A stretch of 64,000 nt of DNA from the IMG/VR virus record IMGVR_UViG_3300030019_000001; one strand, given 5' to 3'. A program made the position numbers and the translations under genes. The notes under the pieces were generated by a model that saw only the letters and a program-made list of their open reading frames with translations, had not been told where the DNA came from and did no database searches. The stretch is from a virus (taxonomy: Duplodnaviria > Heunggongvirae > Uroviricota > Caudoviricetes). Each line of letters begins with the position of its first letter. Position 1 is the first letter of the stretch. Below are positions 20,789 to 63,402 of the stretch, one piece after another.

Positions 20789-20796
20789 ATCTTTGT
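20789..20796 (+). promoter_or_regulatory. TAnnTTTG -7-like promoter element
   Basis: ttttttgTATCTTTGtaaat, 34 nt upstream of the ATG at 20823. Confidence 0.45.
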
Positions 20797-20822
20797 AAAT
20801 CTAATAATTTAATAAAGTAAAT

Positions 20823-21329
20823 ATGACAACATTTGAAGATACATTTAATGTTTGGATGAACAAAAAAGTAAAACATCAATTAGAAATAATAGACAACATT
20901 TCATCTGAAACTGATATTAATCCTCAAAAATGGTTCACTGAAAATTTCTTACGTAGACAAGTTGATGATTTTACTGGAACTGAATTTGTATCAGTTCTAT
21001 TAGAAAATTATTTATGCTATTTGTCCAATTGTTTTGATAGAATAGTAGGAGATTATTTAGAAAGTACTCATAATAATGTTTATGGTGAGCCAATATTTGA
21101 CATATATATGACATTAGAATATAGCTATGATAAAAATAAACTATTTATCAATGAACAATTTGGAGAAATATCTGATATAGAAAGCGTTATAAAATCAATA
21201 TCTATAGATAATAGATATGAATTAACTAAAAATAAATTATTTTCATATATTATCAATGAAACAAAATTGAATATTTTTTCTAATAAAGAAATAAGAGCAT
21301 TAAAATTGAAATGTTTAAATGAAATATAA
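20823..21329 (+). CDS. hypothetical protein
   Basis: 168 aa ORF. Confidence 0.5.
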   Translation: MTTFEDTFNVWMNKKVKHQLEIIDNISSETDINPQKWFTENFLRRQVDDFTGTEFVSVLLENYLCYLSNCFDRIVGDYLESTHNNVYGEPIFDIYMTLEYSYDKNKLFINEQFGEISDIESVIKSISIDNRYELTKNKLFSYIINETKLNIFSNKEIRALKLKCLNEI

Positions 21330-21543
21330 AGTAGGAGACATTATTTATTTTAAACAAATGTATGATAGTGAATCAATAATATTAGATATTATGATTTATA
21401 CTCACAAAAAACCTCAGTATAAATTTAGATTTCTTGATAATGATGATACACATATCATTACTTATGATTATATAGAAAATCAAACAGAATTGAATATTAA
21501 ATTTATGAGAAAGCAAAAATTGTATAAATTACATGAAATATAA
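21319..21543 (+). CDS. small paralog 1 (MKYKVGDI... / ...RKQKLYKLHEI)
   Basis: Tandem family member with an ATGA stop/start overlap to the next copy. Confidence 0.5.
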   Translation: MKYKVGDIIYFKQMYDSESIILDIMIYTHKKPQYKFRFLDNDDTHIITYDYIENQTELNIKFMRKQKLYKLHEI

Positions 21544-21748
21544 AGCTGGAGATATTGTTATAGGTGATTATTTTAGAATAATGATTTTATCTTATGAATA
21601 TGACGAATATAAATATTGTGTAATAAATTATTTAAATGAAATATCAAAATTTGTACACAACTACAACGCATTAATAATAGACAATGAATCAAAATTAGAT
21701 ATCAAATCTACTAGAAAAGAAAAATTGAAACAATTATATGAAATATAA
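21533..21748 (+). CDS. small paralog 2 (MKYKAGDI... / ...RKEKLKQLYEI)
   Basis: As for paralog 1. Confidence 0.5.
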   Translation: MKYKAGDIVIGDYFRIMILSYEYDEYKYCVINYLNEISKFVHNYNALIIDNESKLDIKSTRKEKLKQLYEI

Positions 21749-21941
21749 AGTTGGTGATATTGTAGACGGAAAGAATAGTAAATTAGTAATATTAAAAATT
21801 TGGGATGGATATTATTATTATGTAGATAATAAAAGTCTGAATTTGTCTAAACGTGTACATTTCGATTATTTAGACTATAATTCTGAATTGGATATTAAAT
21901 CAATGAGAAAACAAAAATTAATAAAATTAAATGAGATATAA
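21738..21941 (+). CDS. small paralog 3 (MKYKVGDI... / ...RKQKLIKLNEI)
   Basis: As for paralog 1. Confidence 0.5.
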   Translation: MKYKVGDIVDGKNSKLVILKIWDGYYYYVDNKSLNLSKRVHFDYLDYNSELDIKSMRKQKLIKLNEI

Positions 21942-22176
21942 AGTTGGAGCTGTTGTTGTTGGTACAAAAGGTATGGTATTTAAAATAGTAATATTAAAAA
22001 TTTTAAATGATAATTATGTATATAGTCATGATATACCAGCAAATAAATCAGTTCATACAGTAAGGAAAAAATCTATTGAATCTAAATATTTAGATGAATA
22101 TTCAGAATTAGATAAACAATATACAAGAAAACAAAAATTAATTCAATTGAATGATACTTCAGCAGTGGTTAAATAA
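21931..22176 (+). CDS. small paralog 4 (MRYKVGAV... / ...RKQKLIQLND...)
   Basis: As for paralog 1. Confidence 0.5.
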   Translation: MRYKVGAVVVGTKGMVFKIVILKILNDNYVYSHDIPANKSVHTVRKKSIESKYLDEYSELDKQYTRKQKLIQLNDTSAVVK

Positions 22177-22729
22177 TCCTGATTTTTTAGAAAAGAATCA
22201 ATTTGATAAAAGAAAAATATTAAAAAGATCCATATTATCTGATAAATATTGCGTAATAGGAAAAACATACATATGTTTTGATAACGAAAACTACTGCTCA
22301 GATATTAGATATTATAATTCATCTAGTCATTGTGATTTAACAATTGGTAAATCATATGAAATATTAGATCATAAAAAAGGCAAAATTAAAATTTTAAATG
22401 ACGGAAATAAAAAAATTTGGAGCACGATAAATAGATTTATGTATTCAATAAAATATGAGAGAAGAGATAAATTAAAAAATATAGTCAAATCATCAGATGA
22501 TATTTTTGTTGATGAGCCAGAAAAAAAATTAATTTGCGTTCTATGTGGACAAGATTGGGGTATTGAGAATAAGTTTACAAATACTTGTGAAAATAATGAA
22601 TGTAATGGATTCTGTACATGGGGCTATTATTCCATGAAACCAGAAAGTTTCACAATTGATGATGACGGCTTTTGGCATTTGATACCTATTCCTAAAGATT
22701 TAAAAGAATTATATAATCCTAAAAAATAA
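22151..22729 (+). CDS. Cys-rich hypothetical protein (putative zinc-binding)
   Basis: CVLCGQDWG...CENNECNGFC. Confidence 0.5.
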   Translation: MILQQWLNNPDFLEKNQFDKRKILKRSILSDKYCVIGKTYICFDNENYCSDIRYYNSSSHCDLTIGKSYEILDHKKGKIKILNDGNKKIWSTINRFMYSIKYERRDKLKNIVKSSDDIFVDEPEKKLICVLCGQDWGIENKFTNTCENNECNGFCTWGYYSMKPESFTIDDDGFWHLIPIPKDLKELYNPKK

Positions 22730-22735
22730 ATAAGT

Positions 22736-23125
22736 ATGTTAGATAAAAAATCAACTCAGTGTATTAAAGAACATATCATTCACACGGCGACAAAAATAAA
22801 CGTTAAAAGTGGTAGATGTAGATATAATTTCAGATGTCAAATGAATGCTGTTAATGACGCACTAAGTAGCAATCAACCAACTGTTGGTATGTGTGTTTGT
22901 ATTAATAGTGATAATTGTATTATACATTTTGTTAACATATCAAAAAACAACACGTTCATTGATAATACTTTAGGACAATGGTCAGTTAAATATGATTACT
23001 ATTTAGTTAAAATTATTGAAAAAAAGGATTTTTTAAATATAAATAATATTTTTATTAAATATAGAAAAGAATTACACCAAAAATTGCCATTATATTTAAG
23101 AATGGTAAATACAGTTGAATTTTAA
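22736..23125 (+). CDS. hypothetical protein
   Basis: 129 aa ORF. Confidence 0.45.
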   Translation: MLDKKSTQCIKEHIIHTATKINVKSGRCRYNFRCQMNAVNDALSSNQPTVGMCVCINSDNCIIHFVNISKNNTFIDNTLGQWSVKYDYYLVKIIEKKDFLNINNIFIKYRKELHQKLPLYLRMVNTVEF

Positions 23126-23389
23126 ATGAAAATAGATAAAGGTTGGGGCTGCTGGGATTTGATAAATCCAACAAGACTTGATGACATTGCATATTATCTT
23201 TTGGTCCAAGATTATGTGAAAGATTATAAAGATTCTATACCATTTCTACCAAATATGGATTATGAGCCACCTAATCAAAGTTGGATTAATTATAAATATT
23301 TTAGTGAACTCAAATATTCTAAATATTATAATAATGCAAATAATATATTAAGAAAAGAAAAACTAGTTAAATTAAAAGAAATACAATAA
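23126..23389 (+). CDS. small protein with RKEKLVKLKEIQ tail
   Basis: C-terminal-tail family member. Confidence 0.45.
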   Translation: MKIDKGWGCWDLINPTRLDDIAYYLLVQDYVKDYKDSIPFLPNMDYEPPNQSWINYKYFSELKYSKYYNNANNILRKEKLVKLKEIQ

Positions 23390-23393
23390 TATT

Positions 23394-24071
23394 ATGAAAA
23401 AGAAAATAGTAGTATTTACTGGTGCTGGAATAAGTGCAGAAAGCGGAATTCAAACTTTCAGGGATTCTGACGGACTTTGGGAGCAATATGATGTTAAAGA
23501 CGTCGCAACGATTGATGGTTGGAGGAAAGATAGAAAATTGGTATTAAAATTTTACAATGAAAGGCATAAACAATTAGATACAGTAGAACCTAATTCTGCA
23601 CATTACTTTCTTGCTGAATTAGAACAGAAATATGATGTTCAGATAGTGACGCAAAATGTGGACGATTTACATGAGAGAGCAGGCAGTACAAATGTGTTAC
23701 ATCTCCATGGACAATTAACAAAGATGAGAGCATTTAACAATAATACTGTTTATGATTGGCCAAAAGACTTTGATATTCAAACAGATAGTGTAGATGAAAA
23801 TGGTGATACATTACGACCACATATTGTTTGGTTCGGTGAAGATGTACCAAATATGGGTAAAGCTGAAAAATTAACAAAAGAAGCAGATATTCTTATTGTA
23901 ATTGGAACATCATTACAAGTTTATCCTGCAGCAAATTTGTTATATAAAGTAAATTTCAGAACACACACATATTATATTGATCCATCTGATTCTGATGTTG
24001 GTATTGATATTCGAAATTTCACTCATATTAAAGAAACAGCAACAAAAGGAGTCAAAAAATTAAAATTATAA
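23394..24071 (+). CDS. Sir2-family NAD-dependent protein deacylase/sirtuin (CobB-like), lacking the zinc-ribbon cysteines
   Basis: GAGISAESGIQTFRDSDGLW, QNVDDLHERAGS and LHLHG motifs are present. There are no Cys residues where the 4-Cys Zn module normally sits. Confidence 0.8.
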   Translation: MKKKIVVFTGAGISAESGIQTFRDSDGLWEQYDVKDVATIDGWRKDRKLVLKFYNERHKQLDTVEPNSAHYFLAELEQKYDVQIVTQNVDDLHERAGSTNVLHLHGQLTKMRAFNNNTVYDWPKDFDIQTDSVDENGDTLRPHIVWFGEDVPNMGKAEKLTKEADILIVIGTSLQVYPAANLLYKVNFRTHTYYIDPSDSDVGIDIRNFTHIKETATKGVKKLKL

Positions 24072-24073
24072 AT

Positions 24074-24394
24074 ATGATAATAGAACATAAAAGTGAAAAA
24101 TATGGAATATATTATGGAGAATTAGTTGAGTTTGACTACACTACACATATGATATATTCAGATTGGAGTGAGAGAGAGACTTCAATTTTTTGTGAACAGC
24201 TTGAAGAATACGGTGTATCAGAAATTGTTTTTGATGTTGAAGATGGAGAAAATGAAAATAAATTCTCGTCAACATTATATATTGAAACAACAGATAACAC
24301 AAATTACAAAAAACTTCTGTTGTTAATTTTATCAAAACATCCTGATGAGTTTTCAGAAGAAACAAATAACCACTTTAGAATGTGGTTTGATTAA
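24074..24394 (+). CDS. hypothetical protein
   Basis: 106 aa ORF. Confidence 0.45.
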   Translation: MIIEHKSEKYGIYYGELVEFDYTTHMIYSDWSERETSIFCEQLEEYGVSEIVFDVEDGENENKFSSTLYIETTDNTNYKKLLLLILSKHPDEFSEETNNHFRMWFD

Positions 24395-24412
24395 CAAATA
24401 AATTATAATATT

Positions 24413-24853
24413 ATGTCAAGTGTTACAGAGAAAATGAGCGAATATTTAGAGTTTTTAAAAACTCCTGAGGGAGAAGAAAGTATTCGTGAATTTAAAGCAA
24501 AATTACAATTAGAAGTAGATATTAAGGATAATAACATTGAAAGAATTAAAAAAATGTTTAATGATCAAGAAACTTTTGATTCTTTAGTTAATAGAATAAT
24601 ATGTAAAAATGGTGATGAATGGAGAGACAAATGCTGGAAAAATGGTTGTATGCCATATCCAACTAATCTATTAAACTCATTATTTGATTTAGCAGAACAA
24701 GAAGGAGTTGAAATTACTGAAACTATTGATGATTTCACAGAACATTTTCAGTCTGATATATGTGAATATAAAGGATGGCAATTTGCTATGACATATGGAC
24801 AAGGAACCTGTGGTAGTATATACTACAATAAAAAATTAATGTATAGAGATTGA
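24413..24853 (+). CDS. hypothetical protein
   Basis: 146 aa ORF. Confidence 0.5.
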   Translation: MSSVTEKMSEYLEFLKTPEGEESIREFKAKLQLEVDIKDNNIERIKKMFNDQETFDSLVNRIICKNGDEWRDKCWKNGCMPYPTNLLNSLFDLAEQEGVEITETIDDFTEHFQSDICEYKGWQFAMTYGQGTCGSIYYNKKLMYRD

Positions 24854-25825: not shown

Positions 25826-25845
25826 CCTTAAAAAATTAGGTTTGA

Positions 25846-26118
25846 ATGAATAACACAAATTATAAAAAAGGAGATAAAGTTATTTGTATTAGAAATGATG
25901 GAGGATATGAAAATTCATTAACAATTGGAGAATCTTATAAAGTTATGTATATTGATAAAATAGATGGTGCTTATCATGTTCAAGTAAAATCAGATGATTT
26001 TGATGAAGGACGAGTTACTGTTTTTTTAAGTAGATTTATATCAACTACTGAATATAAAAAAATTCAAAGAAAAGAAAAATTAGAAAATATAAATAATTTA
26101 TTATCAAATGAATTTTAA
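25846..26118 (+). CDS. small paralog (KKGDKVICIRNDGGYE... / ...RKEKLENINN...)
   Basis: Family with a shared N-terminal beta-rich domain and the C-terminal tail. Confidence 0.5.
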   Translation: MNNTNYKKGDKVICIRNDGGYENSLTIGESYKVMYIDKIDGAYHVQVKSDDFDEGRVTVFLSRFISTTEYKKIQRKEKLENINNLLSNEF

Positions 26119-26362
26119 AAAAAGAGATGAAGTTGTGTGTATTGATAATACAGGAGGATATGAAAAATATTTAACAATTGGTAAAACATATGAAATTTGT
26201 TGTATTTACAAAGGAAAAATAACTAACTTAGATCATTTTAGAATATTATCTGACGCAAAACATGTATTATTTGTAAATCCATTAGGAACAATGTTTTTGT
26301 CACCCAATGAATTTGAAAGAAAAGAAAGAAAAGACAAACTAAATAGATTAAATTTAGTATAA
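26108..26362 (+). CDS. small paralog (KKRDEVVCIDNTGGYE... / ...RKDKLNRLNLV)
   Basis: As for 25846..26118. Confidence 0.5.
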   Translation: MNFKKRDEVVCIDNTGGYEKYLTIGKTYEICCIYKGKITNLDHFRILSDAKHVLFVNPLGTMFLSPNEFERKERKDKLNRLNLV

Positions 26363-26390
26363 CATATAAATAATAAAAATAAAATAGGAT

Positions 26391-27043: not shown

Positions 27044-27058
27044 AAATAATAGTAAAAA

Positions 27059-27312: not shown

Positions 27313-27675
27313 ATGAAAAAATGGACAGATTTATTGGTAGGAGAGCCAATATATATTTTAGAATATTATAATGATAATATAAATAGTTTTATTAAAACAA
27401 AATGTATAGGTTTTGATAATATAGGATATGCAGTAGCAATTGGTTATTATGTTGAAAGATTAGCAAATGATAAAGATTTTGAAGGTACTGGATTATGTTT
27501 TCCATTAAATAAAACAGAGTTCAAAAACTCAAAAATAGAACACAACAATAAATATTTCTTCTGCGATATAGATGCTGTTATAGATGAAATGAATGAATAC
27601 GAAAAAGATTTAAATGATTTGAAATCTAAATTTAACAAATTATTTAATACAATAATTGATATAAAAAATAAATAA
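27313..27675 (+). CDS. hypothetical protein
   Basis: 120 aa ORF. Confidence 0.45.
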   Translation: MKKWTDLLVGEPIYILEYYNDNINSFIKTKCIGFDNIGYAVAIGYYVERLANDKDFEGTGLCFPLNKTEFKNSKIEHNNKYFFCDIDAVIDEMNEYEKDLNDLKSKFNKLFNTIIDIKNK

Positions 27676-27693
27676 TTTTTTTATATCAATTTT

Positions 27694-27918
27694 TTGTTGT
27701 ATATTTGTGAAATAATATACTTGAATATGAAAGATAATGAAATATATTCTAACTGGGTTAAAGAATCAAATATAAAAAATTTGACAGGTAATCAATCTAA
27801 GTTAGTTAAAATGATAATTGAGAATAGAAAAGTAATATGTGAAATTGGTAGTTTTTATAAAATATTCGGAAGTATCTATAAATATCTAAAAAATAATAGA
27901 GAAAAACTAGAATATTAA
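27694..27918 (+). CDS. hypothetical protein
   Basis: 74 aa ORF. Confidence 0.35.
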   Translation: MLYICEIIYLNMKDNEIYSNWVKESNIKNLTGNQSKLVKMIIENRKVICEIGSFYKIFGSIYKYLKNNREKLEY

Positions 27919-29026: not shown

Positions 29027-29074
29027 GATGGATTTTTATTTTTATATATACATTAAATAAAAATAAATTATTAA

Positions 29075-30201: not shown

Positions 30202-30261
30202 TAAATTTCATATATTTCATAAATATATCTTGAATAATTTTTTTATTCAAGATATATTTTT

Positions 30262-30269
30262 TATCTTTG
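30262..30269 (+). promoter_or_regulatory. TAnnTTTG -7-like promoter element
   Basis: ttttttTATCTTTGtact, 42 nt upstream of the ligA ATG. Confidence 0.5.
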
Positions 30270-32187: not shown

Positions 32188-32239
32188 TTTGGTAATTACA
32201 AATAAATATATTATCTTTATAAGATAAGATTAAATATAA

Positions 32240-35040: not shown

Positions 35041-35085
35041 ATATAAATAATAATGATTTTCCTTTGGTAAATCAAAAAATTTCCT

Positions 35086-35093
35086 TATCTTTG
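35086..35093 (+). promoter_or_regulatory. TAnnTTTG -7-like promoter element
   Basis: ttccTTATCTTTGcatt, 45 nt upstream of the clpP ATG. Confidence 0.5.
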
Positions 35094-35130: not shown

Positions 35131-35886
35131 ATGCACAAAAATGAATTTAAAAAGTTTGCTACCAAACATTTAGGAATGAGTTCTACATTAGTAGATGATG
35201 CAACAAAATATCAAGCTGAAAATTATGGCTTATCTCCTCATGTTTTAGAAGAACGACAATTGAATGTAACTCAACTATCTGTGTTTGATAGACTTATGAT
35301 GGATAGAATTTTATGGGTGTCTGGTGACGTTGATGATACAATGTCTGATATTATTCAAGCACAATTATTATATTTAGAAGATTCTGATCCTCAAAAGGAC
35401 ATTACAATGCAAATTAATACAGGAGGCGGTAGTGTGACTCATGGGTTAGGAATCATAGATGTTATGAACTATATTAAACCTAATGTAGCCACAGTCAATT
35501 TAGGAATGTGCGCTTCAATGGGTAGTGTACTTCTATCATCTGGAGCAAAAGGTAAGCGTTCATCATTAATTAATTCAACAGTTATGCTACATCACGTTGC
35601 AGCAGGAACTAGTGGCAAAGTAGATGATACTCGTATTAGTCAAATGGAAACTGAAAAATACAATTTTTTACTATTCAAAATTCTTGCTCTTAATACTGAC
35701 AAGTCATTTGAAGAAATTCATGATTTTTGTCAAAGAGATATGTGGTTAAATTCTGATGAAGCTTTGAATTATGGTTTGATAGATAATGTCATTGGATTAG
35801 CTGATAATAAATCCAATTCAATTACAACTATGATGGATGGTTTTGATGAATATTATATGAAATATGTATTTAAACAAGTAAAATAA
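35131..35886 (+). CDS. clpP: ATP-dependent Clp protease proteolytic subunit
   Basis: DRLMMDRILWVSGDVDD...INTGGGSVTHGLGIIDVMNYIKPNVATVNLGMCASMGSVLL (catalytic Ser), MLHHVAAG (His) and the conserved C-terminal region align across the ClpP core. Confidence 0.85.
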   Translation: MHKNEFKKFATKHLGMSSTLVDDATKYQAENYGLSPHVLEERQLNVTQLSVFDRLMMDRILWVSGDVDDTMSDIIQAQLLYLEDSDPQKDITMQINTGGGSVTHGLGIIDVMNYIKPNVATVNLGMCASMGSVLLSSGAKGKRSSLINSTVMLHHVAAGTSGKVDDTRISQMETEKYNFLLFKILALNTDKSFEEIHDFCQRDMWLNSDEALNYGLIDNVIGLADNKSNSITTMMDGFDEYYMKYVFKQVK

Positions 35887-36406: not shown

Positions 36407-36433
36407 TAAAAAATATATTAAATAGAGATTTAT

Positions 36434-36470
36434 AAAAAAATAGTTAGATTTTTATCTAACTATTTTTTTA
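36434..36470 (+). terminator. intrinsic terminator
   Basis: atagttagattt-tt-atctaactat followed by ttttttt. Confidence 0.7.
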
Positions 36471-36511
36471 TGTGAAATATATTCCTTATATTCGTTATTC
36501 AACAATTAAAT

Positions 36512-38221: not shown

Positions 38222-38351
38222 TTAATATGTTTATTTTGTTTATTATATAAAATAATCATAAATAAGTTTGGTAAATTCAAATAAACGAAGTATCTTTGTA
38301 TCTCAATTAAAAACAAAATTAATTATTATTAAAAACAAAAACAAAAAAAGT

Positions 38352-39664: not shown

Positions 39665-39699
39665 TTAAAAATCCTTGCTTATGTGAGGATTTTTTTTTA
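39665..39699 (+). terminator. intrinsic terminator
   Basis: aaaa-atccttgcttatgtgaggat-ttttttttt. Confidence 0.65.
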
Positions 39700-39705
39700 T
39701 CTTTG
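39698..39705 (+). promoter_or_regulatory. TAnnTTTG -7-like promoter element
   Basis: tttttttTATCTTTGtattt, 44 nt upstream of the small ORF at 39742. Confidence 0.5.
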
Positions 39706-41743: not shown

Positions 41744-41953
41744 TAAAAAGTTTGGTAGATTGAAAACTTTTTTGTACTTTTGTACTACATAATAAAAATA
41801 GAAAAAAATCACATTTTTAAGATAATATATACTGATATGAAAAACTACAATAACATAATGAACTTGCTACTCTTAAACCTATTATTACAGAATAATCGGA
41901 CTGAGAATATTATGTCATATCTATTGTAACAAATAATATAAGCATATTAAAAA

Positions 41954-41990
41954 TACCTCAGTCATTTATTTGACTGAGGTTTTTTCTTTT
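41954..41990 (+). terminator. intrinsic terminator
   Basis: acctcagtca-tttatt-tgactgaggt followed by tttttcttt. Confidence 0.75.
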
Positions 41991-42000
41991 ATAATAAAAT

Positions 42001-42080
42001 GCTCCTATGGTGGAATTGGTATACACGCATCACTTAAGATGATGTCCATTTGGATGAGGTTTCGAATACCTCTAGGAGTA
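42001..42080 (+). tRNA. tRNA-Leu (anticodon UAA), class II
   Basis: Acceptor GCTCCTA/TAGGAGT, 3-bp D stem GTG/CAC, anticodon stem CATCA/TGATG, loop CTTAAGA, variable hairpin TCCATTTGGA, T arm GAGGT-TTCGAAT-ACCTC. Confidence 0.7.
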
Positions 42081-42088
42081 CAAAATAT

Positions 42089-42175
42089 GCCGATGTGATG
42101 GAATCTTGGTAGACATTCAAAACTTAAAATTTTGCAAGCTATATGCTTATACGGGTTCAAGTCCCGTCATCGGTA
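42089..42175 (+). tRNA. tRNA-Leu (anticodon UAA), class II with long variable arm
   Basis: Acceptor GCCGATG/CATCGGT, anticodon stem CAAAA/TTTTG, loop CTTAAAA, T arm ACGGG-TTCAAGT-CCCGT. Confidence 0.6.
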
Positions 42176-42184
42176 CAAAAAATC

Positions 42185-42272
42185 GCTCCTGTGATGGAAT
42201 GGTAGACATCCATGTTTTAGAAACATGTGCTGAACAATAGTAGGCGTGTCGGTTCAAGTCCGACCAGGAGTA
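42185..42272 (+). tRNA. tRNA-Leu (anticodon UAG), class II
   Basis: Acceptor GCTCCTG/CAGGAGT, anticodon stem CATGT/ACATG, loop TTTAGAA, T arm GTCGG-TTCAAGT-CCGAC. Confidence 0.65.
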
Positions 42273-42376
42273 CAATATATTCAATGATTAATCATTATGA
42301 TACAATTTATTTAAAAATATGTTCAATTTTTATTCTTTTTGTCATAGAATTTTTTATATATAAAATAAAAAATAAT

Positions 42377-43475: not shown

Positions 43476-43548
43476 GGCTTGGTATCCCAACGGCAGAGGA
43501 CGGCGTTTCAAATGCGTTTCAGTGAGGGTTCGAATCCCTCTCAAGCTA
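43476..43548 (+). tRNA. tRNA, class I, anticodon uncertain (best fold gives CAA)
   Basis: Acceptor GGCTTGG/TCAAGCT and a clear T arm GAGGG-TTCGAAT-CCCTC. The anticodon stem is weak (GGCGT/GCGTT with G-U pairs). Confidence 0.5.
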
Positions 43549-44091
43549 CACATTAAATTTCTTTGATGCTATAATTGATTTCATATCATTTATATCGCTT
43601 GACCAATATTTCATTGAATCATCATCAGTTTGAACAATTCCTGTGCCATCGTGAGGACCAGGATTCATTTTTTTAACCTTATAATCAATTGAAGCCCATC
43701 TAAAATTTTCAACTCTTTCTTTCTTTATTACTTTACACAATTCCGTATTATCCCAACCAAGCAGACAATAATCTCCAACAGATGGCAGATTTTCCAGATC
43801 TTCAATTTTTTTAGAATAGCTTTTTATTTGTTCACGTTTAACTAAAAAATTATTATTCCACAATTCATATTTATCAAATTTAACGTTATAGTGTTCTGTA
43901 TGTTCATTATATCCAATTATTTTACCTATTCTATATTTATAGTCTGTGTCATTTTCTCTAGGTATAAAATATTCAGGTATTTTAGATTCATAGAAATCTT
44001 CATCAAGTCTAACGTAATCATTTATTTCTGGTTCTGAATCACGTGTAAATTCTTTGGTATCGTAGAATTCGAATTTTTTAATATGTATCAT
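43546..44091 (-). CDS. array A member (MIHIKKFEF... / ...ASKKFNV)
   Basis: 181 aa ORF with a 4-nt overlap to the upstream member. Confidence 0.5.
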   Translation of the reverse strand: MIHIKKFEFYDTKEFTRDSEPEINDYVRLDEDFYESKIPEYFIPRENDTDYKYRIGKIIGYNEHTEHYNVKFDKYELWNNNFLVKREQIKSYSKKIEDLENLPSVGDYCLLGWDNTELCKVIKKERVENFRWASIDYKVKKMNPGPHDGTGIVQTDDDSMKYWSSDINDMKSIIASKKFNV

Positions 44092-47009: not shown

Positions 47010-47117
47010 GATTTTAAATTATTTTATATATTATATATAAATTATTGAGATATTATTTATAAAAAAAGTAAATTATATTTTTTTTATATATAAACAATAA
47101 AAAACAATTTAAAAATA

Positions 47118-47686: not shown

Positions 47687-47809
47687 AAATAAAACATTTT
47701 TTATAATCTATATATTATATATTATTGAGTCAAACAAAAAATTTATAAATAATAATATTTTATCGTAATAAAAAATTATATATAATAAAAAATCATACAA
47801 AGTTTTATA

Positions 47810-48028: not shown

Positions 48029-48099
48029 ATTGTTATTGAATAAGATGTGTTGATATTTTATTTATTTATTTTTATATATAATAAAAAACAATTTAGAAT

Positions 48100-48565: not shown

Positions 48566-50377
48566 ATGAGCAAACAATTAATTAATATTGGCTCATCTCC
48601 AAACGATGGAACTGGAGATAATTTAAGAGAATCATTCATTAAAATAAATTCCAATTTTAATGATGTTTATTCTTTTACAGGATATACAGGTACTTCTGGA
48701 ACATCAGGAATAAACGGAACTAATGGCACATCAGGAATAAACGGAACTACAGGTACTTCTGGAACTTCAGGTTTAAATGGATCTTCAGGAGGAGCATCAG
48801 TAACTAATGTTACATATAGTGAATTATTAGATTTGATAAATACTTTATCATTAACTATTGGTACACAATATTTAATTACTGATTATAGTACAGTACATAT
48901 AATTCCATATACTAGTGATTTAAATTCAGGTATAACTGAACCATTATTAGTTACCGCAATTGGATTAGATAAATTGAAACCAGAAGCTCATTCTTATTTA
49001 TATTCACAAGATGTAATTTATTATAATTTTAATAATAATCAAACAGTTGTACCAGGATGCACAACTGGCTATATTTACAGAAGAATTGATACAATACAAA
49101 ATAACGATTTTCCTTTTGATTTTAGAAATGTTAAATTTAGAAGATGGCAAATTAATGTTACAAATATATGGAATTCAGGAACAACATACAATTCCAAAGA
49201 TGTTGTATTATTTTCTGAAACCAATCAAATTTATATTTGCATAAAAAATAATACAACAAATATAAATCCAAATAATAATGATGATTCAAATGGTATTTGG
49301 CAGTTATTTGAGTATTATAATCTATCTTATATAAGTTGTACTGAATATAATCTAATTTTTGGTGATATAACCATGCCATGTTCAACAGGATATACTGATA
49401 GTTATATGTGGAGTGATTTTGACTACTATTATTCAACATCATATTCAAATATAATTAATATATCTGAATTAAACTCAAATATAATAAATGGATCAAATAA
49501 TGTTATATTAGGTGTCAATTTCAGAGATAATAATATAAATGTGAATTTCTATAACAATACTATTGGTAATGATTTTAATAACAATACTATTGGTCGTAAT
49601 TTTATTGGTAATAGTATTAGTGATAATTTTAAAAACAATTTAATTGATGATAATTTTAAAAACAATTCTATTGGAGATACATTTCAGGCTAATTCTATTG
49701 GATATGAGTTTAAATATAACTCTATTGGTTCTGCTGGCTCATATAATAAAATTGGTAGAATATGTAATAATAACATTATTAGTACAGAATTCACTGGAAA
49801 TAATATAGGTGATAGATTCTATAATAATATGATTTGTAAATCTTTTTCTAGTAATACACTTGGTGATGACTGTTATAATAACGTTATCGATAGCAATTTT
49901 AATGCTAATGTCATTGGAAACAATTTCAACATTAATATTATAAATACAGAATTTACCCGTAATTCTATTGGAAATACGTTTCAGATTAATTCTATTGGAA
50001 TACAATTTTTATATAATAATATAGGAGATTTTTTTACAAATAATATAATTGCTGATCATTTCACGTCAAATAGTATAAATTCATCTTTCTCTAGTAATAA
50101 CATTTCCAATTTATTTACTTCAAATAACATAGGTAGTACATTTGATTCAAATATAGTAGGTATTGGATTTACAAATAATAGTATTGGAAATTCTTTTAGA
50201 ATAAATACAATTTCTGATTATTTTCAAATGAATAGTGTTTGTGATAATTTTGGAGGATTAGATTTTACATTAGCAAGTTACGTATATTTACCTTATACAA
50301 AAGAATTGTATGTTGATGATACAAATACTAAAAAATTACAATATAATAGAATGATAATTGTAGATGCAAATGCATAA
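48566..50377 (+). CDS. collagen-like (G-X-Y) plus nonapeptide beta-helix repeat protein; tail-fibre-like
   Basis: GTSGTSGINGTNGTSGINGTTGTSGTSGLNGSSGG triple-helix repeats, then ~25 copies of an xxNxIGxxF 9-residue repeat. Confidence 0.55.
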   Translation: MSKQLINIGSSPNDGTGDNLRESFIKINSNFNDVYSFTGYTGTSGTSGINGTNGTSGINGTTGTSGTSGLNGSSGGASVTNVTYSELLDLINTLSLTIGTQYLITDYSTVHIIPYTSDLNSGITEPLLVTAIGLDKLKPEAHSYLYSQDVIYYNFNNNQTVVPGCTTGYIYRRIDTIQNNDFPFDFRNVKFRRWQINVTNIWNSGTTYNSKDVVLFSETNQIYICIKNNTTNINPNNNDDSNGIWQLFEYYNLSYISCTEYNLIFGDITMPCSTGYTDSYMWSDFDYYYSTSYSNIINISELNSNIINGSNNVILGVNFRDNNINVNFYNNTIGNDFNNNTIGRNFIGNSISDNFKNNLIDDNFKNNSIGDTFQANSIGYEFKYNSIGSAGSYNKIGRICNNNIISTEFTGNNIGDRFYNNMICKSFSSNTLGDDCYNNVIDSNFNANVIGNNFNINIINTEFTRNSIGNTFQINSIGIQFLYNNIGDFFTNNIIADHFTSNSINSSFSSNNISNLFTSNNIGSTFDSNIVGIGFTNNSIGNSFRINTISDYFQMNSVCDNFGGLDFTLASYVYLPYTKELYVDDTNTKKLQYNRMIIVDANA

Positions 50378-54152: not shown

Positions 54153-54230
54153 TTAATATAGATATTTTCAATATATATAAAATAATAATTATAAAAACTT
54201 TTCTTGCTATTTTTTATATAAAAATAAAAA

Positions 54231-55209: not shown

Positions 55210-55279
55210 ATTAAACTGTTAAATTTTTATTATAAGTGTATATATAAATTTTCACAATTATAAAATAATATATACTATC

Positions 55280-55816
55280 ATGAAATATTTAAAGCAATAC
55301 GAAGCATACATTGAGATGTATTTAGATGATGATGATCAATTAACATTAATGAAAGAATATCTTGATAATGAAGATTTATCAAAAATAAATAAAATATTAA
55401 ATAGTGGATTTGATCCTAATACAAAATATGGAATTCATCCTGTAATATACGATCTTCAAGATAAAAATAAGGACAAATCAAATTCTAATATATTAAAATC
55501 ATTTATTGAACATGGACTAGATAATAAAATCATTACAATTTTTTTATATAATGAATTAAATTGGACTAGATATGCAGTAGATAAATTAAATCTATTAGAA
55601 ATATCTAAAATTTGTATTAAGTCTGGAGCAGATTTATTTTATGATTATGGTTTGTATAGTGATTTTTTTGATATGATCGAAAAAAAGAAAACAACATTTA
55701 AATCATTATTCACAGAAAAATTTGTGAATGATTTAATGAGTATCATTAAAGAAGAAGCTTCAGAGCAATATGACAAATATATAATACAAAAAAACTCAAA
55801 AAAATTTAACATATGA
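55280..55816 (+). CDS. ankyrin-like protein (MKYLKQYEAYIEMY... / ...NSKKFNI)
   Basis: Paralog of 55813..56361. Confidence 0.5.
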   Translation: MKYLKQYEAYIEMYLDDDDQLTLMKEYLDNEDLSKINKILNSGFDPNTKYGIHPVIYDLQDKNKDKSNSNILKSFIEHGLDNKIITIFLYNELNWTRYAVDKLNLLEISKICIKSGADLFYDYGLYSDFFDMIEKKKTTFKSLFTEKFVNDLMSIIKEEASEQYDKYIIQKNSKKFNI

Positions 55817-56361
55817 AATATTTAAAAACCTATGAAAAAATGATGACATTAGAGTTAGATATTGATGATCAAGAAGAATTGATGACAAAAGCATTAGAAT
55901 ATAATAAAATTAATCTAGTAAAAGGACTTCTTGATAATGGATTTGACCCAAATTATATTGTAACACACTATGGTGTACCTCTATTACTTTATCAATTATC
56001 TGATAACACAACAAAATTGGATATTGATATATTAAAATTATTAATAGACAAAGGAGCCGATGTTAATCTTATGATAAATGGATCACCTTTAATCTCTGGT
56101 GCAATAACTTTATATCACAGAAAAAGTACAGATAAAGAATATAGAGATAAATATTTAGAAGCTATCAGATTATTTATTAAATCTGGCGCAGATTTAACAG
56201 CAAGAGACGATGAAAAAGAAAATTCATTTGATACAATTCAAAATATGATAGATTATGGATATTTTAAACCTATTTTTACAAAAAGATTATTGAAGATTAT
56301 TGAAGAAGAAGCACCAGAACAATATGGAATTTACATAACATCTAAAAAGTATAATATATAA
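55813..56361 (+). CDS. ankyrin-repeat protein (MKYLKTYEKMMTLE... / ...TSKKYNI)
   Basis: LVKGLLDNGFDPNY...LLIDKGADVNLMINGSPLISGAI. ATATGA overlap with the previous gene. Confidence 0.55.
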   Translation: MKYLKTYEKMMTLELDIDDQEELMTKALEYNKINLVKGLLDNGFDPNYIVTHYGVPLLLYQLSDNTTKLDIDILKLLIDKGADVNLMINGSPLISGAITLYHRKSTDKEYRDKYLEAIRLFIKSGADLTARDDEKENSFDTIQNMIDYGYFKPIFTKRLLKIIEEEAPEQYGIYITSKKYNI

Positions 56362-57857: not shown

Positions 57858-57879
57858 TTTTATTTTTTATTTTTATTAA

Positions 57880-59415: not shown

Positions 59416-59447
59416 CTTATTATATTTTATTTTTATTATATATATTT

Positions 59448-60872
59448 TTAAATATTATCACCTCTTCTAAGTTTACCATCTTTACCTTCTTTCTTTCTTT
59501 CTTCTTCACGTTCCTTTTCGTCTAATTTCATAAGAAAGTTTACAAATGCAGTTGCACTAGCATATCCAACAAAATCTTCATATATATCTTTTACTTCATT
59601 ATATGACAATTTGTTTTTCCAATCAAATCCTCTTTCAAAATAATCTTCTTCTGATGCCATTTCCCATGTTCTTGGTGATGTCCAATTTGGTGCTTGATTA
59701 ACAGTTTTTAATCTATGATAATATTCTGGATTTTCTTTAATAAATTGTATAAGTTTAGGATTAATTGATTTTATATTTTTTGCATATCCAATCCAATCAG
59801 ATGGTTTTGGGGCAAAATTGATATGTTGAAATCTATTCCACAAAATCTTATCTTCTGTTAAATCTCCTGTACTTAAATCTGAACCTCTATTACCTGCTGC
59901 AATAACTATCCAATATTGAGGCAATTCATAACTACCATGTTTACCACTTAATGCTAATGATAATGATGCATCAAGAACCATTTGTGGTGCTCTATTCATT
60001 TCATCAAAAAACATTATACCACCTTTTCCGTTTTTACCATTGCTGGTAGGAAATATTGATGGTAATTTCCAAACAGTTCTTTCATCTTTTGAATCATCAG
60101 AGCCCATAATATTTTCAATTCTAGGAATACCTCTAAAGTCAGTAGGCTCAATTTGTGATAAATGCCATTCAATTACAGCAATTTCCAATTCTCTAGCTAC
60201 TTGATGCAAGATTTCTGTTTTTCCAATTCCAGGAGCACCCCAAATAAATATTGCATTTGTTTTTCTTCTAGAATATTCTCTACCATTTTCTCCTTCTTCT
60301 TGATGCCTACCTGCTCTAAGTGCATTCATTTTGTAAAGCTTAATTACTTCTTTTTTTAATTCTGCAACATCATCATTAAGAACTGTTGGATCTGGATGCT
60401 CTAAACTTACAAATTCATCATTATCATCTAAAACGCTTTCATTCAAAAATAAATTCATCAAACTTTCTTTAACTTTCTCCAATTCTTCTATTTCATCATT
60501 TACTACTTTTTCTTCTTCATCATTATCACCAACAGTTTCATCTGATCCGTCGATGCCAGGAATTTCTTTTTCCTTTTCATCTTCTACTGTTTCATCATCT
60601 GGTTGAATTTCAGATGCTTCTATTTCTTCATCAGAAGGCAAGTCAGACGTTTTAGCATATCCTGGAGGACATATAAAATCTATACCTCTTGGTAATTTAC
60701 CCTTTTTCTGTAAATACAATGCATAATATACCCATGCATGTTTTCCAAAATGTTGTTTAAAGAAACCAATAATCTTGTTTAAAATATCAGAAAATACATT
60801 TTCATTTATTTTTACACTTTCATTTTCTCTATACTCTTTAGAAAAATGATCATAATTTTTTAATGTTTTCAT
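59448..60872 (-). CDS. MoxR-like AAA+ ATPase, paralog 2 (with acidic N-terminal insert)
   Basis: Same motifs as paralog 1 (IWGAPGIGKTEI, GIMFFDEMNRA, VIAAGNR), plus a D/E-rich insert. Confidence 0.7.
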   Translation of the reverse strand: MKTLKNYDHFSKEYRENESVKINENVFSDILNKIIGFFKQHFGKHAWVYYALYLQKKGKLPRGIDFICPPGYAKTSDLPSDEEIEASEIQPDDETVEDEKEKEIPGIDGSDETVGDNDEEEKVVNDEIEELEKVKESLMNLFLNESVLDDNDEFVSLEHPDPTVLNDDVAELKKEVIKLYKMNALRAGRHQEEGENGREYSRRKTNAIFIWGAPGIGKTEILHQVARELEIAVIEWHLSQIEPTDFRGIPRIENIMGSDDSKDERTVWKLPSIFPTSNGKNGKGGIMFFDEMNRAPQMVLDASLSLALSGKHGSYELPQYWIVIAAGNRGSDLSTGDLTEDKILWNRFQHINFAPKPSDWIGYAKNIKSINPKLIQFIKENPEYYHRLKTVNQAPNWTSPRTWEMASEEDYFERGFDWKNKLSYNEVKDIYEDFVGYASATAFVNFLMKLDEKEREEERKKEGKDGKLRRGDNI

Positions 60873-60945
60873 TCTACGAAATTATTTTTGTTTTTATATA
60901 TAAAAATTTATATTTCCTTTTTTAATAAAAATGAATAAATTTTAA

Positions 60946-61605
60946 TTATCTATTATAATGCTTACACTCAGATGAATATTTTGCTTGTCTCCATCTAATA
61001 TCATTCATTGTACCCCATGCTGTTTTACTCGATCCACCTTGAATTTGTGGACGACTACCTGAAGATATTTTTTCTGCTTTTTCTTTTGCATTCATTAAAT
61101 GCCATAATTTTTCTCTATCTGATACATTTTCAGATCCTGAATATTGTTCAATAGGAATTAACTCTTCTAAATCAAAATCAATATCAGAATTATAATAATT
61201 ATCAACATCCTCACTATATTCAGTTTTCATTATTTCTCCATTTTTTCTAACAACTTCTATTTTCCAGCCATTATTAAAAATTTTAATATTTAATTCATTC
61301 TCAATTTTTTTAATAATAGATTTAAATAATAATATGTTAGGATATGTCCAAAATGATATTATCTTATTATTAGTCCATAATCTACCAGGATAACATGGAT
61401 TATCTATTTCATGCCCAGCATTATAATGAGAATCAGTAAAATCTCCAAAATATACATTTATAACATTTGTGTGATTATCATTCACATCACAATAAAAAGG
61501 TTTAGAATCAGAATCATCCATATCACACAACTTATCACCATTCTTATCTCGTACATAACTTGGATTTTCTTTTAATAGTTTAAAATTTTCAAATTTTTTA
61601 ATCAT
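60946..61605 (-). CDS. hypothetical protein (MIKKFENFKLLKE leader)
   Basis: 219 aa, directly upstream of the MoxR pair. Confidence 0.5.
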   Translation of the reverse strand: MIKKFENFKLLKENPSYVRDKNGDKLCDMDDSDSKPFYCDVNDNHTNVINVYFGDFTDSHYNAGHEIDNPCYPGRLWTNNKIISFWTYPNILLFKSIIKKIENELNIKIFNNGWKIEVVRKNGEIMKTEYSEDVDNYYNSDIDFDLEELIPIEQYSGSENVSDREKLWHLMNAKEKAEKISSGSRPQIQGGSSKTAWGTMNDIRWRQAKYSSECKHYNR

Positions 61606-61621
61606 AATAGTTTTTTATTTA

Positions 61622-61837
61622 TTATACTTTAGTAGGCTTATTATATTTAACTGTTCTTGGATCAAAACTTGTATAAACACCACATGGATAATACTCCTGA
61701 ACAAAAAATGTTAACGCCTGTAATAGAGCATACTTACTTTTTACATAAGTATATAAAACTGGCGCAACGCCTTTTTCACCATGTTTAGAATCAACTGGAT
61801 TTGAATAAATAAAATTTACATTAGTATATTTCCACAT
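61622..61837 (-). CDS. hypothetical protein
   Basis: 71 aa ORF. Confidence 0.4.
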   Translation of the reverse strand: MWKYTNVNFIYSNPVDSKHGEKGVAPVLYTYVKSKYALLQALTFFVQEYYPCGVYTSFDPRTVKYNKPTKV

Positions 61838-61934
61838 GATAAAATAGAATTGTTTTTTCTATATATAATTTTATGAAATATTTTTTTATTTCAAATATTA
61901 TAATTATCTTTATAATAATAAACAAATAAGTATT

Positions 61935-62132
61935 ATGAAAATTTTAAAGCAAGAACTACTCAACAAAAATAATAATTTTTCGGAAGAAATTAAAATAGAA
62001 GAATATGATGATATGATAGAATATTATAATAATGAAGATTTCATTGATGAATATTTTACAGAAGAAGATTTCATTGAAGATTATATACCTGATGAATTTA
62101 AAACTGACGATACAACATTTTTGAAAATTTAA
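61935..62132 (+). CDS. acidic small protein
   Basis: 65 aa ORF. Confidence 0.35.
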   Translation: MKILKQELLNKNNNFSEEIKIEEYDDMIEYYNNEDFIDEYFTEEDFIEDYIPDEFKTDDTTFLKI

Positions 62133-62252
62133 CATTATTGTAACATAAAAATCCTTTTAAAAATATTTTAACAGAAGTTTTTTTAATATATAAAGTCTCA
62201 ATATATTTTAAACTATTAAAATAGTTTTTAATACAAAAAATAAAAAAACAAT

Positions 62253-62588
62253 ATGATAGAACATTTGACATTAGAAACATTCAAGGAAAAAATTATGGAC
62301 TTTGACACAAAAACATTTAAAAACGATAAAGCTATTGCCTTGAAATTCAGTGCATTGTGGTGTGGACCGTGCAAATCTTACACTCCAATATTTGAAAATG
62401 TTTCAAATGAAATTAAAGATATGACATTTTATTCAGTAGATGTAGAAGATGAAATTGAAATTTCAGAATTTTTTTCAATAAAAAGTATACCAACTACTGT
62501 CATTATAAATACAAAAGGAGAAAAAGTATCTTTTTCTGGTATGACACAAAAAAGCAAATTAATTGAGCAAATAAACAACAATTTGTAA
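62253..62588 (+). CDS. trx: thioredoxin
   Basis: WCGPCK active site within a thioredoxin-fold-length ORF. Confidence 0.8.
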   Translation: MIEHLTLETFKEKIMDFDTKTFKNDKAIALKFSALWCGPCKSYTPIFENVSNEIKDMTFYSVDVEDEIEISEFFSIKSIPTTVIINTKGEKVSFSGMTQKSKLIEQINNNL

Positions 62589-62604
62589 TATTTATTTTAA
62601 AAAT

Positions 62605-62648
62605 CAAAAAAAAGTTAAAAGATTGTATTATTACAATCTTTTTTTTTA
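62605..62648 (+). terminator. intrinsic terminator
   Basis: aaaaaaaa-gttaaaagattgta-ttat-tacaatctt-ttttttttt. Confidence 0.75.
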
Positions 62649-62654
62649 TCTTTG
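62647..62654 (+). promoter_or_regulatory. TAnnTTTG -7-like promoter element
   Basis: ttttttTATCTTTGtactc, 32 nt upstream of the ATG at 62679. Confidence 0.5.
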
Positions 62655-62678
62655 TACTCTAATTAAAACATAAACAAT

Positions 62679-63299
62679 ATGACTAATATTATTTCATGTA
62701 AAAAAGATGTTGATTATAAAATTGATATCTTTACTATTAAAGAATCAAGTGATTTTTATAGAAATTTTATTAAGAAAAATGACTATTATGAATATGAAGA
62801 TGGTTATGAAAGATATAACTTAAAGAAAAAAATTCATTATTTTGATTATAATGATATTCAGTCTTCTTATGGATCTTCAGATGTTTATAATAAAACATGT
62901 AGATTAATTATAGCTCATAATGAAAAAGAAATACTAGGAATATGTAAATTTGCATATTGGGGTTCAAGTGAGTCATATGCTATAAGTTATTTATCAACCA
63001 ATAACGAATTTTTTGGAATTGGAATATCAAAAAAATTACTAGAAAAAATGTTTGAATACTTTTCAAATACTTATCCAAATGACATTTTATCATTTTCTGG
63101 TTATTCTGTAGAAGGCTGGAAATATTTAAGAAAAAACATTTTATCATTTTCCAATAAATACAAAGTTAAGATAACGGAAAAAAGCATACAATATCCAGGT
63201 ATCAGTGGTATCTTCTCAGATGAAGATAGAGAACTAATGTATAAAAGTATGGATGAAATTAAAAATTTATACGGGATTAAAGATTATTGTGATTATTAA
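62679..63299 (+). CDS. GNAT-like N-acetyltransferase (tentative)
   Basis: FFGIGISKKLLEKMFEYF resembles GNAT motif A (Q/RxxGxG/A). Confidence 0.4.
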   Translation: MTNIISCKKDVDYKIDIFTIKESSDFYRNFIKKNDYYEYEDGYERYNLKKKIHYFDYNDIQSSYGSSDVYNKTCRLIIAHNEKEILGICKFAYWGSSESYAISYLSTNNEFFGIGISKKLLEKMFEYFSNTYPNDILSFSGYSVEGWKYLRKNILSFSNKYKVKITEKSIQYPGISGIFSDEDRELMYKSMDEIKNLYGIKDYCDY

Positions 63300-63394
63300 T
63301 ATTTATTATAAAGTATTATATCATGATCTTGCATCATTTTAAATCATTTATTGAAAAATAAGTGATTTTTTTTGTTTATATCAAAAATTAATAT

Positions 63395-63402
63395 TATCTT
63401 TG
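63395..63402 (+). promoter_or_regulatory. TAnnTTTG -7-like promoter element
   Basis: taatatTATCTTTGataaa, 31 nt upstream of the ATG at 63426. Confidence 0.45.

Follow-up and report, generated by a model that had tools for sequence, protein, structure and literature searches.

Candidate Bacteroidota-type -33/-7 promoters in a 64-kb segment of a large, T4-like phage genome

Introduction

Promoters read by the Bacteroidota primary sigma factor (sigma-A, or sigma-ABfr) have a consensus with TTTG at -33 and TAnnTTTG at -7 (PMC7366714, PMC9723704, PMC6847099). The -7 box spans -12 to -5, counted from the start site (PMC9723704, PMC6847099), the -33 element and a patch near -18 are known from Bacteroides and Flavobacterium promoters (PMC7366714, PMC6847099), and the -33 element is weak in Flavobacterium itself (PMC6847099). 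In the Chlorobi, which are the nearest other group, the -7 box is a different one, TA[ATC][ATC][AT]T (bioRxiv 10.1101/172254). In Flavobacterium johnsoniae the start codons have been reported to lie in a context that is A-rich, depleted of AUG and free of Shine-Dalgarno (SD) sequences (PMC6847099). The subject of this work is the 8-mer TATCTTTG, which an earlier note had interpreted as a -7 box of this type ahead of six genes in a 64,000-nucleotide stretch of the IMG/VR virus record IMGVR_UViG_3300030019_000001 (Caudoviricetes). This whole stretch is referred to below as the window.

Several phage systems are relevant for comparison. Phages larger than 634 kb form the Mahaphage clade together with the Lak phages and are predicted to replicate in Bacteroidetes, and Bacteroidetes or Prevotella hosts of huge phages and Lak megaphages have been predicted by other means (PMC7162821). 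The Lak group is placed with the T4-like "group 2.2" jumbo phages; it lacks an RNA polymerase of its own but has genes for sigma factors and an orthologue of gp33, both of which are reported in all group 2 jumbo phages, Lak included (PMC7824862). The late promoters of T4 consist of TATAAATA at positions -13 to -6, which gp55 recognises together with gp33 and gp45 (PMC1524935), while T4-type phages also carry promoter-early stem-loop (PeSL) cassettes (PMC2839356, PMC4122927). No paper was found that describes promoters in Lak phages, Mahaphages or large aquatic phages related to them, and a literature search for the exact 8-mer returned unrelated primer matches alone.

Placement of the box in the window

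Nine copies of TATCTTTG are present in the window. The seven on the plus strand start at 20788, 30262, 35086, 38291, 39698, 62647 and 63395 and are all intergenic, 31–61 nt 5' of a plus-strand ATG, while the two on the minus strand (13461 and 13712) both lie within coding sequence. Neither TATCTTTG (9 observed, 6.5 expected) nor TANNTTTG (124 observed, 133.5 expected) is enriched over the whole window, and since these counts do not exceed chance, positional and strand-controlled tests were used instead. Upstream intergenic DNA contains six copies of TATCTTTG against 0.10 expected; none of 1000 dinucleotide-preserving shuffles of the same regions reached six, the shuffle maximum being two. An unbiased 8-mer enrichment scan of the upstream regions recovered both TATCTTTG and TCTTTGTA. 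The TATCTTTG signal is one of position and not of abundance over the whole window.

That the motif is more frequent upstream of genes than in shuffled sequence, as the reading in the earlier note requires, is borne out by the shuffles and by the 8-mer scan. The six sites that it listed are all present, although the one given as 20789 begins at 20788 and the copy at 38291 was overlooked. Its TATCTTTA variant at 32212 is also present, 28 nt 5' of ATG 32240. The description of the flanks holds in part: a pure T-run precedes the box at three of the six sites (30262, 39698 and 62647) and not at the others, T6 and then G standing before the 20788 box, and (T/C)A follows the box at five of the six, one site deviating. 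The same three T-run sites were said to follow intrinsic terminators, and folding agrees, giving hairpins of -17.3, -12.5 and -10.4 kcal/mol, respectively, with T-runs.

Promoter architecture

The strand preference of the pattern was examined in the co-directional intergenic regions of ~50 non-redundant related loci (~785 kb), which are numbered below with the prefix L. TAnnTTTG occurred 146 times in the sense and 50 times in the antisense orientation. Almost all of the sense excess is due to TATATTTG (60 vs 7) and TATCTTTG (34 sense), the latter not being within the six commonest antisense 8-mers. The full pattern TTG-N19-21-TAHHTTTG gave 66 sense and 17 antisense matches. An alignment of 138 distinct family sites was made on the -7 8-mer alone, so that the -33 element was not selected for. 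In this alignment three columns stand out 5' of the box, T at -23, T at -22 and G at -21 counted from the TA, the G being present in 68 of the 138 sites; positions -6 to -3 from the TA form a T-rich patch, and a T directly follows the box in 101 sites (73%). Given that the box spans -12 to -5 in start-site coordinates, this G corresponds to -33 and the T-rich patch lies near -18. The emergent family consensus, TTTG-N20-TAT(C/A)TTTG-T, matches that published for Bacteroidota sigma-A.

A position weight matrix (PWM) was built from the sites of the relatives alone and scanned over both strands of the window (128 kb). The top 12 matches, at 30262, 38291, 35086, 39698, 20788, 27700, 15362 (minus strand), 63395, 62647, 36487, 32212 and 61905, are all intergenic and lie 25–61 nt 5' of an ATG on the same strand. 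An additional match with a full -33/-7 pair was found at 41775, ahead of a tRNA cluster. At least 12 promoters of this kind, termed class A, are predicted in the window, or 13 with the one before the tRNA cluster; those at 27700, 36487, 61905, 15362 and 41775 are new relative to the earlier list. The exact form TAHHTTTG is found at 10 of the 13 sites and one-mismatch variants at the other three (TATCTTTA twice, TATATTCG once), with TATCTTTG itself being the box at seven. The two variable positions are TC, TA or CT and never G. TTG is present at -33 with a 19–21 nt spacer at seven sites. While the distance from box to ATG varies from 25 to 61 nt, the distance from box to upstream TTG is fixed at 19–21 nt. 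If transcription starts ~5 nt downstream of the box's G, the predicted leaders are 13–49 nt long.

Boxes stay at orthologous positions in relatives with 40–90% protein identity, while the flanks, the hairpins and the neighbouring genes change. Applied to a 40-kb piece of the Prevotella phage Lak-A1, the same matrix found five TATCTTTGTAT sites, all on the coding strand and four of them with an open reading frame (ORF) starting 26–48 nt downstream, and in a piece of the huge phage genome LR745206 it found ~9 TTTG-N20-TATATTTGTAT sites. Pieces of Listeria and Staphylococcus phages, which served as Firmicutes controls, gave zero matches.

Comparison with the Bacteroides and Flavobacterium promoters, which the earlier note had proposed, showed that the -33/-7 spacing and the -18 patch agree with the published descriptions. 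The window sites share with sigma-A promoters the -7 box sequence, including the lack of G at its two variable positions, the TTG or TTTG 19–21 nt 5' of the box, a T- or AT-rich patch near -18, the sense orientation before genes, and SD-less leaders with much A around -14 to -11 and at -3. As the -7 box of the Chlorobi is different, the invariant TTTG points to the Bacteroidota. Three differences were seen. The box has the narrow lineage form TAT(C/A)TTTG then T, the sites belong to a phage and not a bacterial genome with start sites that are predicted, and at about half of the window sites a terminator T-run takes the place of the -33 TTTG.

Translation signals

A GGAG, GAGG or AGGA core at -20 to -4 was found in 1 of 109 window genes, compared to 5.2% of random 17-mers. 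Such SD cores precede 2–6% of the genes in pieces of Bacteroides, Flavobacterium, Lak and huge-phage genomes and 59–68% of those in the Listeria and Staphylococcus phages. Before the window starts the frequency of A is 55–72% at -17 to -10 (61–72% over -17 to -11) and 61% at -3, while G drops to 1–8% at -16 to -7. AUG is depleted around the starts, with ratios of 0.46 at -20 to -3, a value partly inflated by first-ATG gene calling, and 0.67 at +3 to +20. The absence of SD sequences and the A-rich tracts remarked on previously are confirmed, and these features agree with those reported for Flavobacterium johnsoniae (PMC6847099).

Terminator-linked sites

The 55 nt 5' of each site were folded, which revealed a hairpin and T-run directly before 7 of the 13 sites (27700, 30262, 36487, 39698, 62647, 63395 and, on the minus strand, 15362). 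The seven hairpins have energies of -10 to -19 kcal/mol and z values of -3.4 to -9.7, and four of them (27700, 36487, 63395 and 15362) add to the three already noted. Because these seven sites stand directly behind a hairpin and T-run, the T-run is considered to be mostly the U-tract of the upstream terminator and not a core promoter element. At 27700, 30262, 36487 and 15362 the -33 position is filled by hairpin or T-run sequence without TTG, at 39698 and 62647 the stem contains a TTG placed at -33, and at 63395 the TTTG forms the end of the T-run itself.

These units resemble PeSL cassettes in being composite and intergenic, with a stem-loop terminator and a strong promoter of the host-sigma type, and in lying between small ORFan genes of a T4-like phage, where they would insulate the transcription of each gene. 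They differ in that the promoters are of the Bacteroidota -33/-7 type, while PeSLs have sigma-70 promoters of -35/-10 type; the window stems are rich in A and T and mutually unrelated, in place of the GGGG...CCCC stems of PeSLs; and the window cassettes have no Shine-Dalgarno sequence. The ~100-bp homology between PeSL cassettes has no counterpart in the window, where the shared part consists of the T-run and TATCTTTGTA (~17 nt) and the stems and flanks are unrelated.

Identity of the phage

The window is a piece of a large, T4-like, AT-rich phage. It has a GC content of 24% and, with the standard code, a coding density of 90% over ~110 mostly small ORFs that end in TAA (83), TGA (18) or TAG (9). 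Stop-codon recoding, known from Lak phages, was rejected for the window on the basis of this coding density and the normal stops. The recognisable products include an NAD-dependent DNA ligase (ATG 30304), ClpP (35131–35886), two AAA ATPases beside a DUF2201/VWA protein, an SPFH/Band 7 lipoprotein (ATG 38352), a homing endonuclease and a T4 gp9/gp10-like tail-fibre or baseplate protein (gene 48566–50377). Most products are ORFans, and searches of PHROGs and Pfam mostly gave no family match.

A nucleotide search against phage records returned a single 124-bp match for the window. The best protein-level matches, for ClpP and the ligase, were to LR745206, LR756502 and LR756504, "uncultured phage" genomes of 635–642 kb, and the next best were to the Prevotella Lak megaphages. 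Orthologues of window genes, at 47–90% identity, are present on dozens of IMG/VR contigs that reach 380 kb, the longest being 235–380 kb. Cellular ClpP homologues gave no clue to the host, as they have ~42% identity across many phyla. The window has in common with the Mahaphage/Lak lineage the low GC content, the tRNA clusters, the T4-like structural genes, the best ClpP and ligase matches and the same TATCTTTGTAT or TATATTTGTAT boxes. It differs from that lineage in that protein identity is just 40–53% and in its standard code, the Lak genomes being translated with codes 11 and 15 (PMC7824862).

Recognition of the boxes

The window is most readily interpreted as part of a large T4-like phage of the Bacteroidota in which TATCTTTG would serve as the -7 box for the host RNA polymerase with its primary sigma factor, and a probability of about 0.85 is assigned to this reading. 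The assignment of the box as Bacteroidetes-type, put forward in the earlier note, is supported by the form of the -7 box, the -33 TTG, the position, the -18 patch and the leaders, and the suggestion of a Bacteroidetes-like host by the promoter grammar, the SD-less A-rich leaders and the relationship to huge phages and Lak. In the proposed mechanism the host polymerase and the Bacteroidota primary sigma factor would bind TTG at -33 and TAT(C/A)TTTG at -7. Transcription would start ~5 nt downstream of this box's G, giving the short SD-less, A-rich leaders that Bacteroidota ribosomes use. A preceding hairpin would halt transcription from upstream, so that each small gene or gene group could be read from its own promoter, and in the composite cassettes the T-run of the terminator would take up the AT-rich stretch of the promoter between -18 and -33.

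Several points weigh against this interpretation. Recognition by the host factor, the start sites and the timing are all deduced from sequence, with the start sites being predictions. At -33, 6 of the 13 window sites carry TTTT or nothing. The 40-kb pieces of two cultured phages, Bacteroides phage DAC22 and Flavobacterium phage MaF61, gave no matrix match and no clear strand bias, so that this positive control is uninformative; the strand test with the 8-mer is underpowered on control pieces of 40 kb. Because neither piece was matched, the matrix is taken to capture a lineage-specific strong form, TAT[CA]TTTGT, and not the general consensus. The early timing discussed below is argued from gene content and layout, and most of the products are ORFans. 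Finally, one of the related contigs is filed under a Prochlorococcus single-cell genome. This contig, QCKH01000004.1 (L075/L106; 83,794 bp, 52% ClpP identity), has five Bacteroidota-type boxes in the sense and none in the antisense orientation, with SD cores at 3%. Probably it comes from a phage of a Bacteroidota host that was co-sorted, and is not Prochlorococcus DNA or a cyanophage.

The strongest alternative is that the boxes are read by a phage-encoded, RpoD-like sigma factor and not by host sigma-A, with the uniform TAT(C/A)TTTGT marking phage-specific recognition. Some of the sigma factors encoded by group 2 jumbo phages, including Lak, are near cellular RpoD (PMC7824862), and the window box, being TATCTTTG at 7 of 13 sites, is much narrower than the general TAnnTTTG. 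However, in architecture and spacing the sites agree exactly with the host consensus, a factor still to be synthesised cannot serve the phage genes that are transcribed first, and no sigma-like gene was seen among the ~30 of ~110 window ORFs scanned, most of which have no family match. Recognition by a phage factor is considered improbable, and if such a factor were derived from a Bacteroidota RpoD it would imply the same host phylum anyway.

The composite structure of 7 of the 13 sites could also indicate that the hairpin-box units are primarily PeSL-like recombination or protein-binding cassettes that shuffle ORFans, with promoter activity being secondary. Consistent with this, the gene upstream of the box in L100 and L008 is different from that in the window, and 4 of ~10 gene indels relative to the closest contig adjoin class A sites, one of them at 61905, where the gene downstream of the box has no homologue in that contig. 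This number is close to the chance estimate of ~2–3 and is not significant, six sites have no hairpin, and the shared ~17 nt with unrelated stems fall short of the ~100-bp homology of PeSLs (PMC2839356). Such a role is less probable still than a phage sigma factor, and it is compatible with promoter function, since PeSLs are themselves promoters. A motif that acts at the RNA level, such as an element of the leader or of translation, would account for the constant sense orientation shortly before start codons, but it is the distance to the ATG that varies and the distance to the upstream TTG that is fixed; at seven sites the motif follows a terminator and hence lies outside the upstream transcript, and the 41775 copy heads a unit without an ORF of at least 40 aa, which makes action in RNA highly improbable. 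The idea that a T-rich 8-mer turns up by chance in intergenic DNA that is AT-rich, for which the whole-window counts might be cited, is refuted by the intergenic shuffles, the sense bias, the fixed -33 spacing, the PWM placement and the orthologous conservation.

Reading by host RNA polymerase with sigma-A is a sound but expected result that involves no new mechanism, as phages are expected to copy the promoter grammar of their hosts; the host phylum of the relatives had already been predicted, and current understanding is left unchanged. The practical value lies in a cheap call of the host phylum of an uncultured large phage from sequence alone, as the -33/-7 grammar and SD-less leaders cleanly separate Bacteroidota phages from AT-rich Firmicutes phages, and in the flagging of doubtful labels such as that of the contig filed under Prochlorococcus. 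The strong, compact cassettes could serve as expression parts in Bacteroides or Flavobacterium.

A second promoter-like class

The commonest upstream motif in the window is not TATCTTTG but a T-run followed by TATATA(T/A)A and an A-run. TATATATA occurs 30 times compared to 4.3 in shuffles. Most gene starts outside class A carry a single TATATATA(A) box, most often 27–34 nt before the ATG, and orthologous genes retain the box. The 20.8–43.5 kb block is almost free of copies. Examples are found at 742–749, 3365–3372, 8280–8287, 12302–12311, 17942–17953, 29043–29050, 47085–47092, 47777–47784, 48073–48080, 54172–54179, 55239–55246, 59437–59444, 60895–60902 and 61860–61867. Alignment of 56 non-identical sites showed a T-rich 5' flank, an A-rich 3' flank and no information 5' of -12, and with no -35-like signal the identification of this TATA class as a sigma-70 -10 box was rejected.

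The TATA class, one of two promoter-like classes in the window, resembles T4 late promoters. Like those promoters it has a single 8-mer box of A and T only and no -35 element, and one box precedes gene 48100, directly 5' of the gp9/gp10-like tail-fibre/baseplate gene, which is the sole gene that could be classed as late. It differs in its core, TATATA(T/A)A and not TATAAATA, in its T-run and A-run flanks, and in its frequent occurrence in divergent regions, where the palindromic core could act both ways. Early and late timing could not be assigned by gene function, as PHROGs and Pfam mostly returned no family. Class A promoters cluster at 20.8–43.5 kb, a one-directional, ORFan-rich block that includes the ligase and ClpP genes, and at 61.9–63.4 kb. 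Given this clustering and the TATA boxes at most other starts, early or middle genes are most likely driven from class A via the unmodified host holoenzyme, and late genes most likely from the TATA class via a phage factor, as in a T4-like programme. The two classes and the terminator-bounded units provide a working transcription map.

Individual class A sites

The first plus-strand site lies in a divergent intergenic region, with TATCTTTG(TA) at 20788–20795 (PWM 21.2) and no -33 TTG; the predicted start at ~20800 gives a 23-nt leader before ATG 20823. The box is kept before the orthologues in L006 and L004, and in L008, at 40% protein identity and in a different gene context, it takes the form TTTG-N20-TATATTTG. 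At 27700–27707 the box is TATATTTG (PWM 21.0), preceded by a hairpin and T-run at 27649–27697 (-14.6 kcal/mol, z -5.3) and followed by a predicted start at ~27712 and ATG 27727; box and hairpin are kept in L010 and L005. The top PWM score, 25.9, belongs to TATCTTTG at 30262–30269, behind a terminator hairpin at 30221–30259 (z -9.7) and T5. Its predicted start at ~30274 gives a 30-nt leader for the DNA ligase gene. This box is kept before the ligase orthologues of L001–L009, including L007, where the left hairpin arm has decayed.

The variant TATCTTTA at 32212–32219 (PWM 16.3) is paired through a 20-nt spacer with a -33 TTTG at 32188–32191, has a predicted start at ~32224 and is kept in L010. 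Upstream of ClpP, a -33 TTTG at 35063–35066, inside TTTGGTAA, and a 19-nt spacer precede TATCTTTG at 35086–35093 (PWM 23.9), and the predicted start at ~35098 gives a 33-nt leader to ATG 35131. The box is kept before ClpP in L010, L005 and L013 and is also present in L046 and L065. A weakened box, TATATTCG, was found at 36487–36494 (PWM 16.7; predicted start ~36499, ATG 36512), following a hairpin with flanking A- and T-runs at 36431–36472 (-18.7 kcal/mol, z -7.3); the orthologous site in L010 has the canonical TATATTTG.

The SPFH/Band 7 lipoprotein gene is preceded by a -33 TTTG at 38267–38270, a 20-nt spacer and TATCTTTG at 38291–38298 (PWM 24.0), with a predicted start at ~38303 and a 49-nt leader; the site is kept in L010 and L005. 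The program-made ORF list opens this gene at TTG 38268, which is part of the gene's own -33 box. The true start is ATG 38352, which opens a lipoprotein-type signal peptide (MKKQLILVCVLVVALMSSC), so that the promoter signature also provides a correction of the gene start. At 39698–39705 TATCTTTG (PWM 23.7) follows a terminator hairpin at 39667–39694 and T8, with CTTG at -33 inside the stem, a predicted start at ~39710 and ATG 39742 of a 58-aa ORF. L010 retains this box, and its hairpin is altered on both arms yet still pairs.

In the second cluster, a TATCTTTA variant at 61905–61912 (PWM 15.8) has a predicted start at ~61917 and precedes ATG 61935 of a 65-aa ORF. TATCTTTG at 62647–62654 (PWM 19.3) follows a terminator hairpin at 62617–62642 and T8, with a predicted start at ~62659 and ATG 62679; its counterpart is TATCTTTA behind the same hairpin in L096 and TATCTTTG without a hairpin in L100. 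The last site combines a hairpin at 63341–63368, a T-run that holds the -33 TTTG (63371–63374), a 20-nt spacer and TATCTTTG at 63395–63402 (PWM 19.8). The predicted start is at ~63407, the ORF that opens at ATG 63426 runs past the end of the window, and the site is kept in L100 and L096. The sole minus-strand member of class A has a terminator hairpin at 15402–15365 (-17.7 kcal/mol, z -6.4) with T8 and TATATTTG at 15362–15355 (PWM 20.0), a predicted start at ~15350 and ATG 15303. A further minus-strand match, TTG-N20-TATATTTG at 49446–49453 (PWM 15.3), lies antisense within the tail-fibre/baseplate gene and is either a chance match or an internal antisense promoter.

The tRNA cluster and other features

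The window contains four tRNA genes, all tRNA-Leu, at 42001–42273 and 43476–43549, with the anticodons taa (twice), tag and caa. In L010, the closest relative, five consecutive tRNA-Leu genes are present (taa twice, aag, caa and tag). A tRNA set for a single amino acid is unusual for a phage of 24% GC. The cluster is preceded by a unit that begins at 41751, with a -33 TTTG, a 20-nt spacer and TACTTTTG at 41775–41782 (PWM 13.0; predicted start ~41787). The promoter is followed by ~200 nt without an ORF of at least 40 aa, and the unit ends at a strong terminator at ~41964–41995 (CCTCAGTCA...TGACTGAGG and T6), with the first tRNA-Leu gene ~5 nt after the T-run. The unit (41751–42000) is 97.7% identical to the L010 clade, where the proteins are just ~80% identical. 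The layout of promoter, leader, terminator and tRNA is also found in LR745206 and L078, with examples at L090:36626–36895 and L078:~16900–17315. A search of Rfam with the 41.7–42.0 kb unit gave sub-threshold, terminator-driven matches alone. The unit may encode a small RNA, or else a leader that attenuates transcription of the tRNA cluster. A broader scheme, in which these relatives of huge phages organise their accessory genome as self-contained terminator/promoter cassettes, a counterpart of PeSLs in Bacteroidota phages that promotes ORFan exchange, and the conserved non-coding leader, as an attenuator or a small RNA, controls the phage tRNA supply, is tentative and on balance unlikely.

Phage tmRNA genes were observed in more distant relatives with ~47–51% ClpP identity (L077:11269–11638 and L078:7930–8300). 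The left edge of the window truncates an ORF (30–368) that encodes the C-terminal domain of a Clp ATPase with the motif YGARPLKRVIQ, and as both this fragment and ClpP are encoded, the phage may supply its own Clp protease system. Small paralogous ORFs form tandem arrays at 21319–22176, 25846–26362 and 55280–56361. The first consists of four overlapping genes of 67–81 aa that match overlapping targets in the relative contig, and the adjacent pairs 25846/26108 and 55280/55813 each match one gene there, which suggests that local gene duplication lies behind the arrays.

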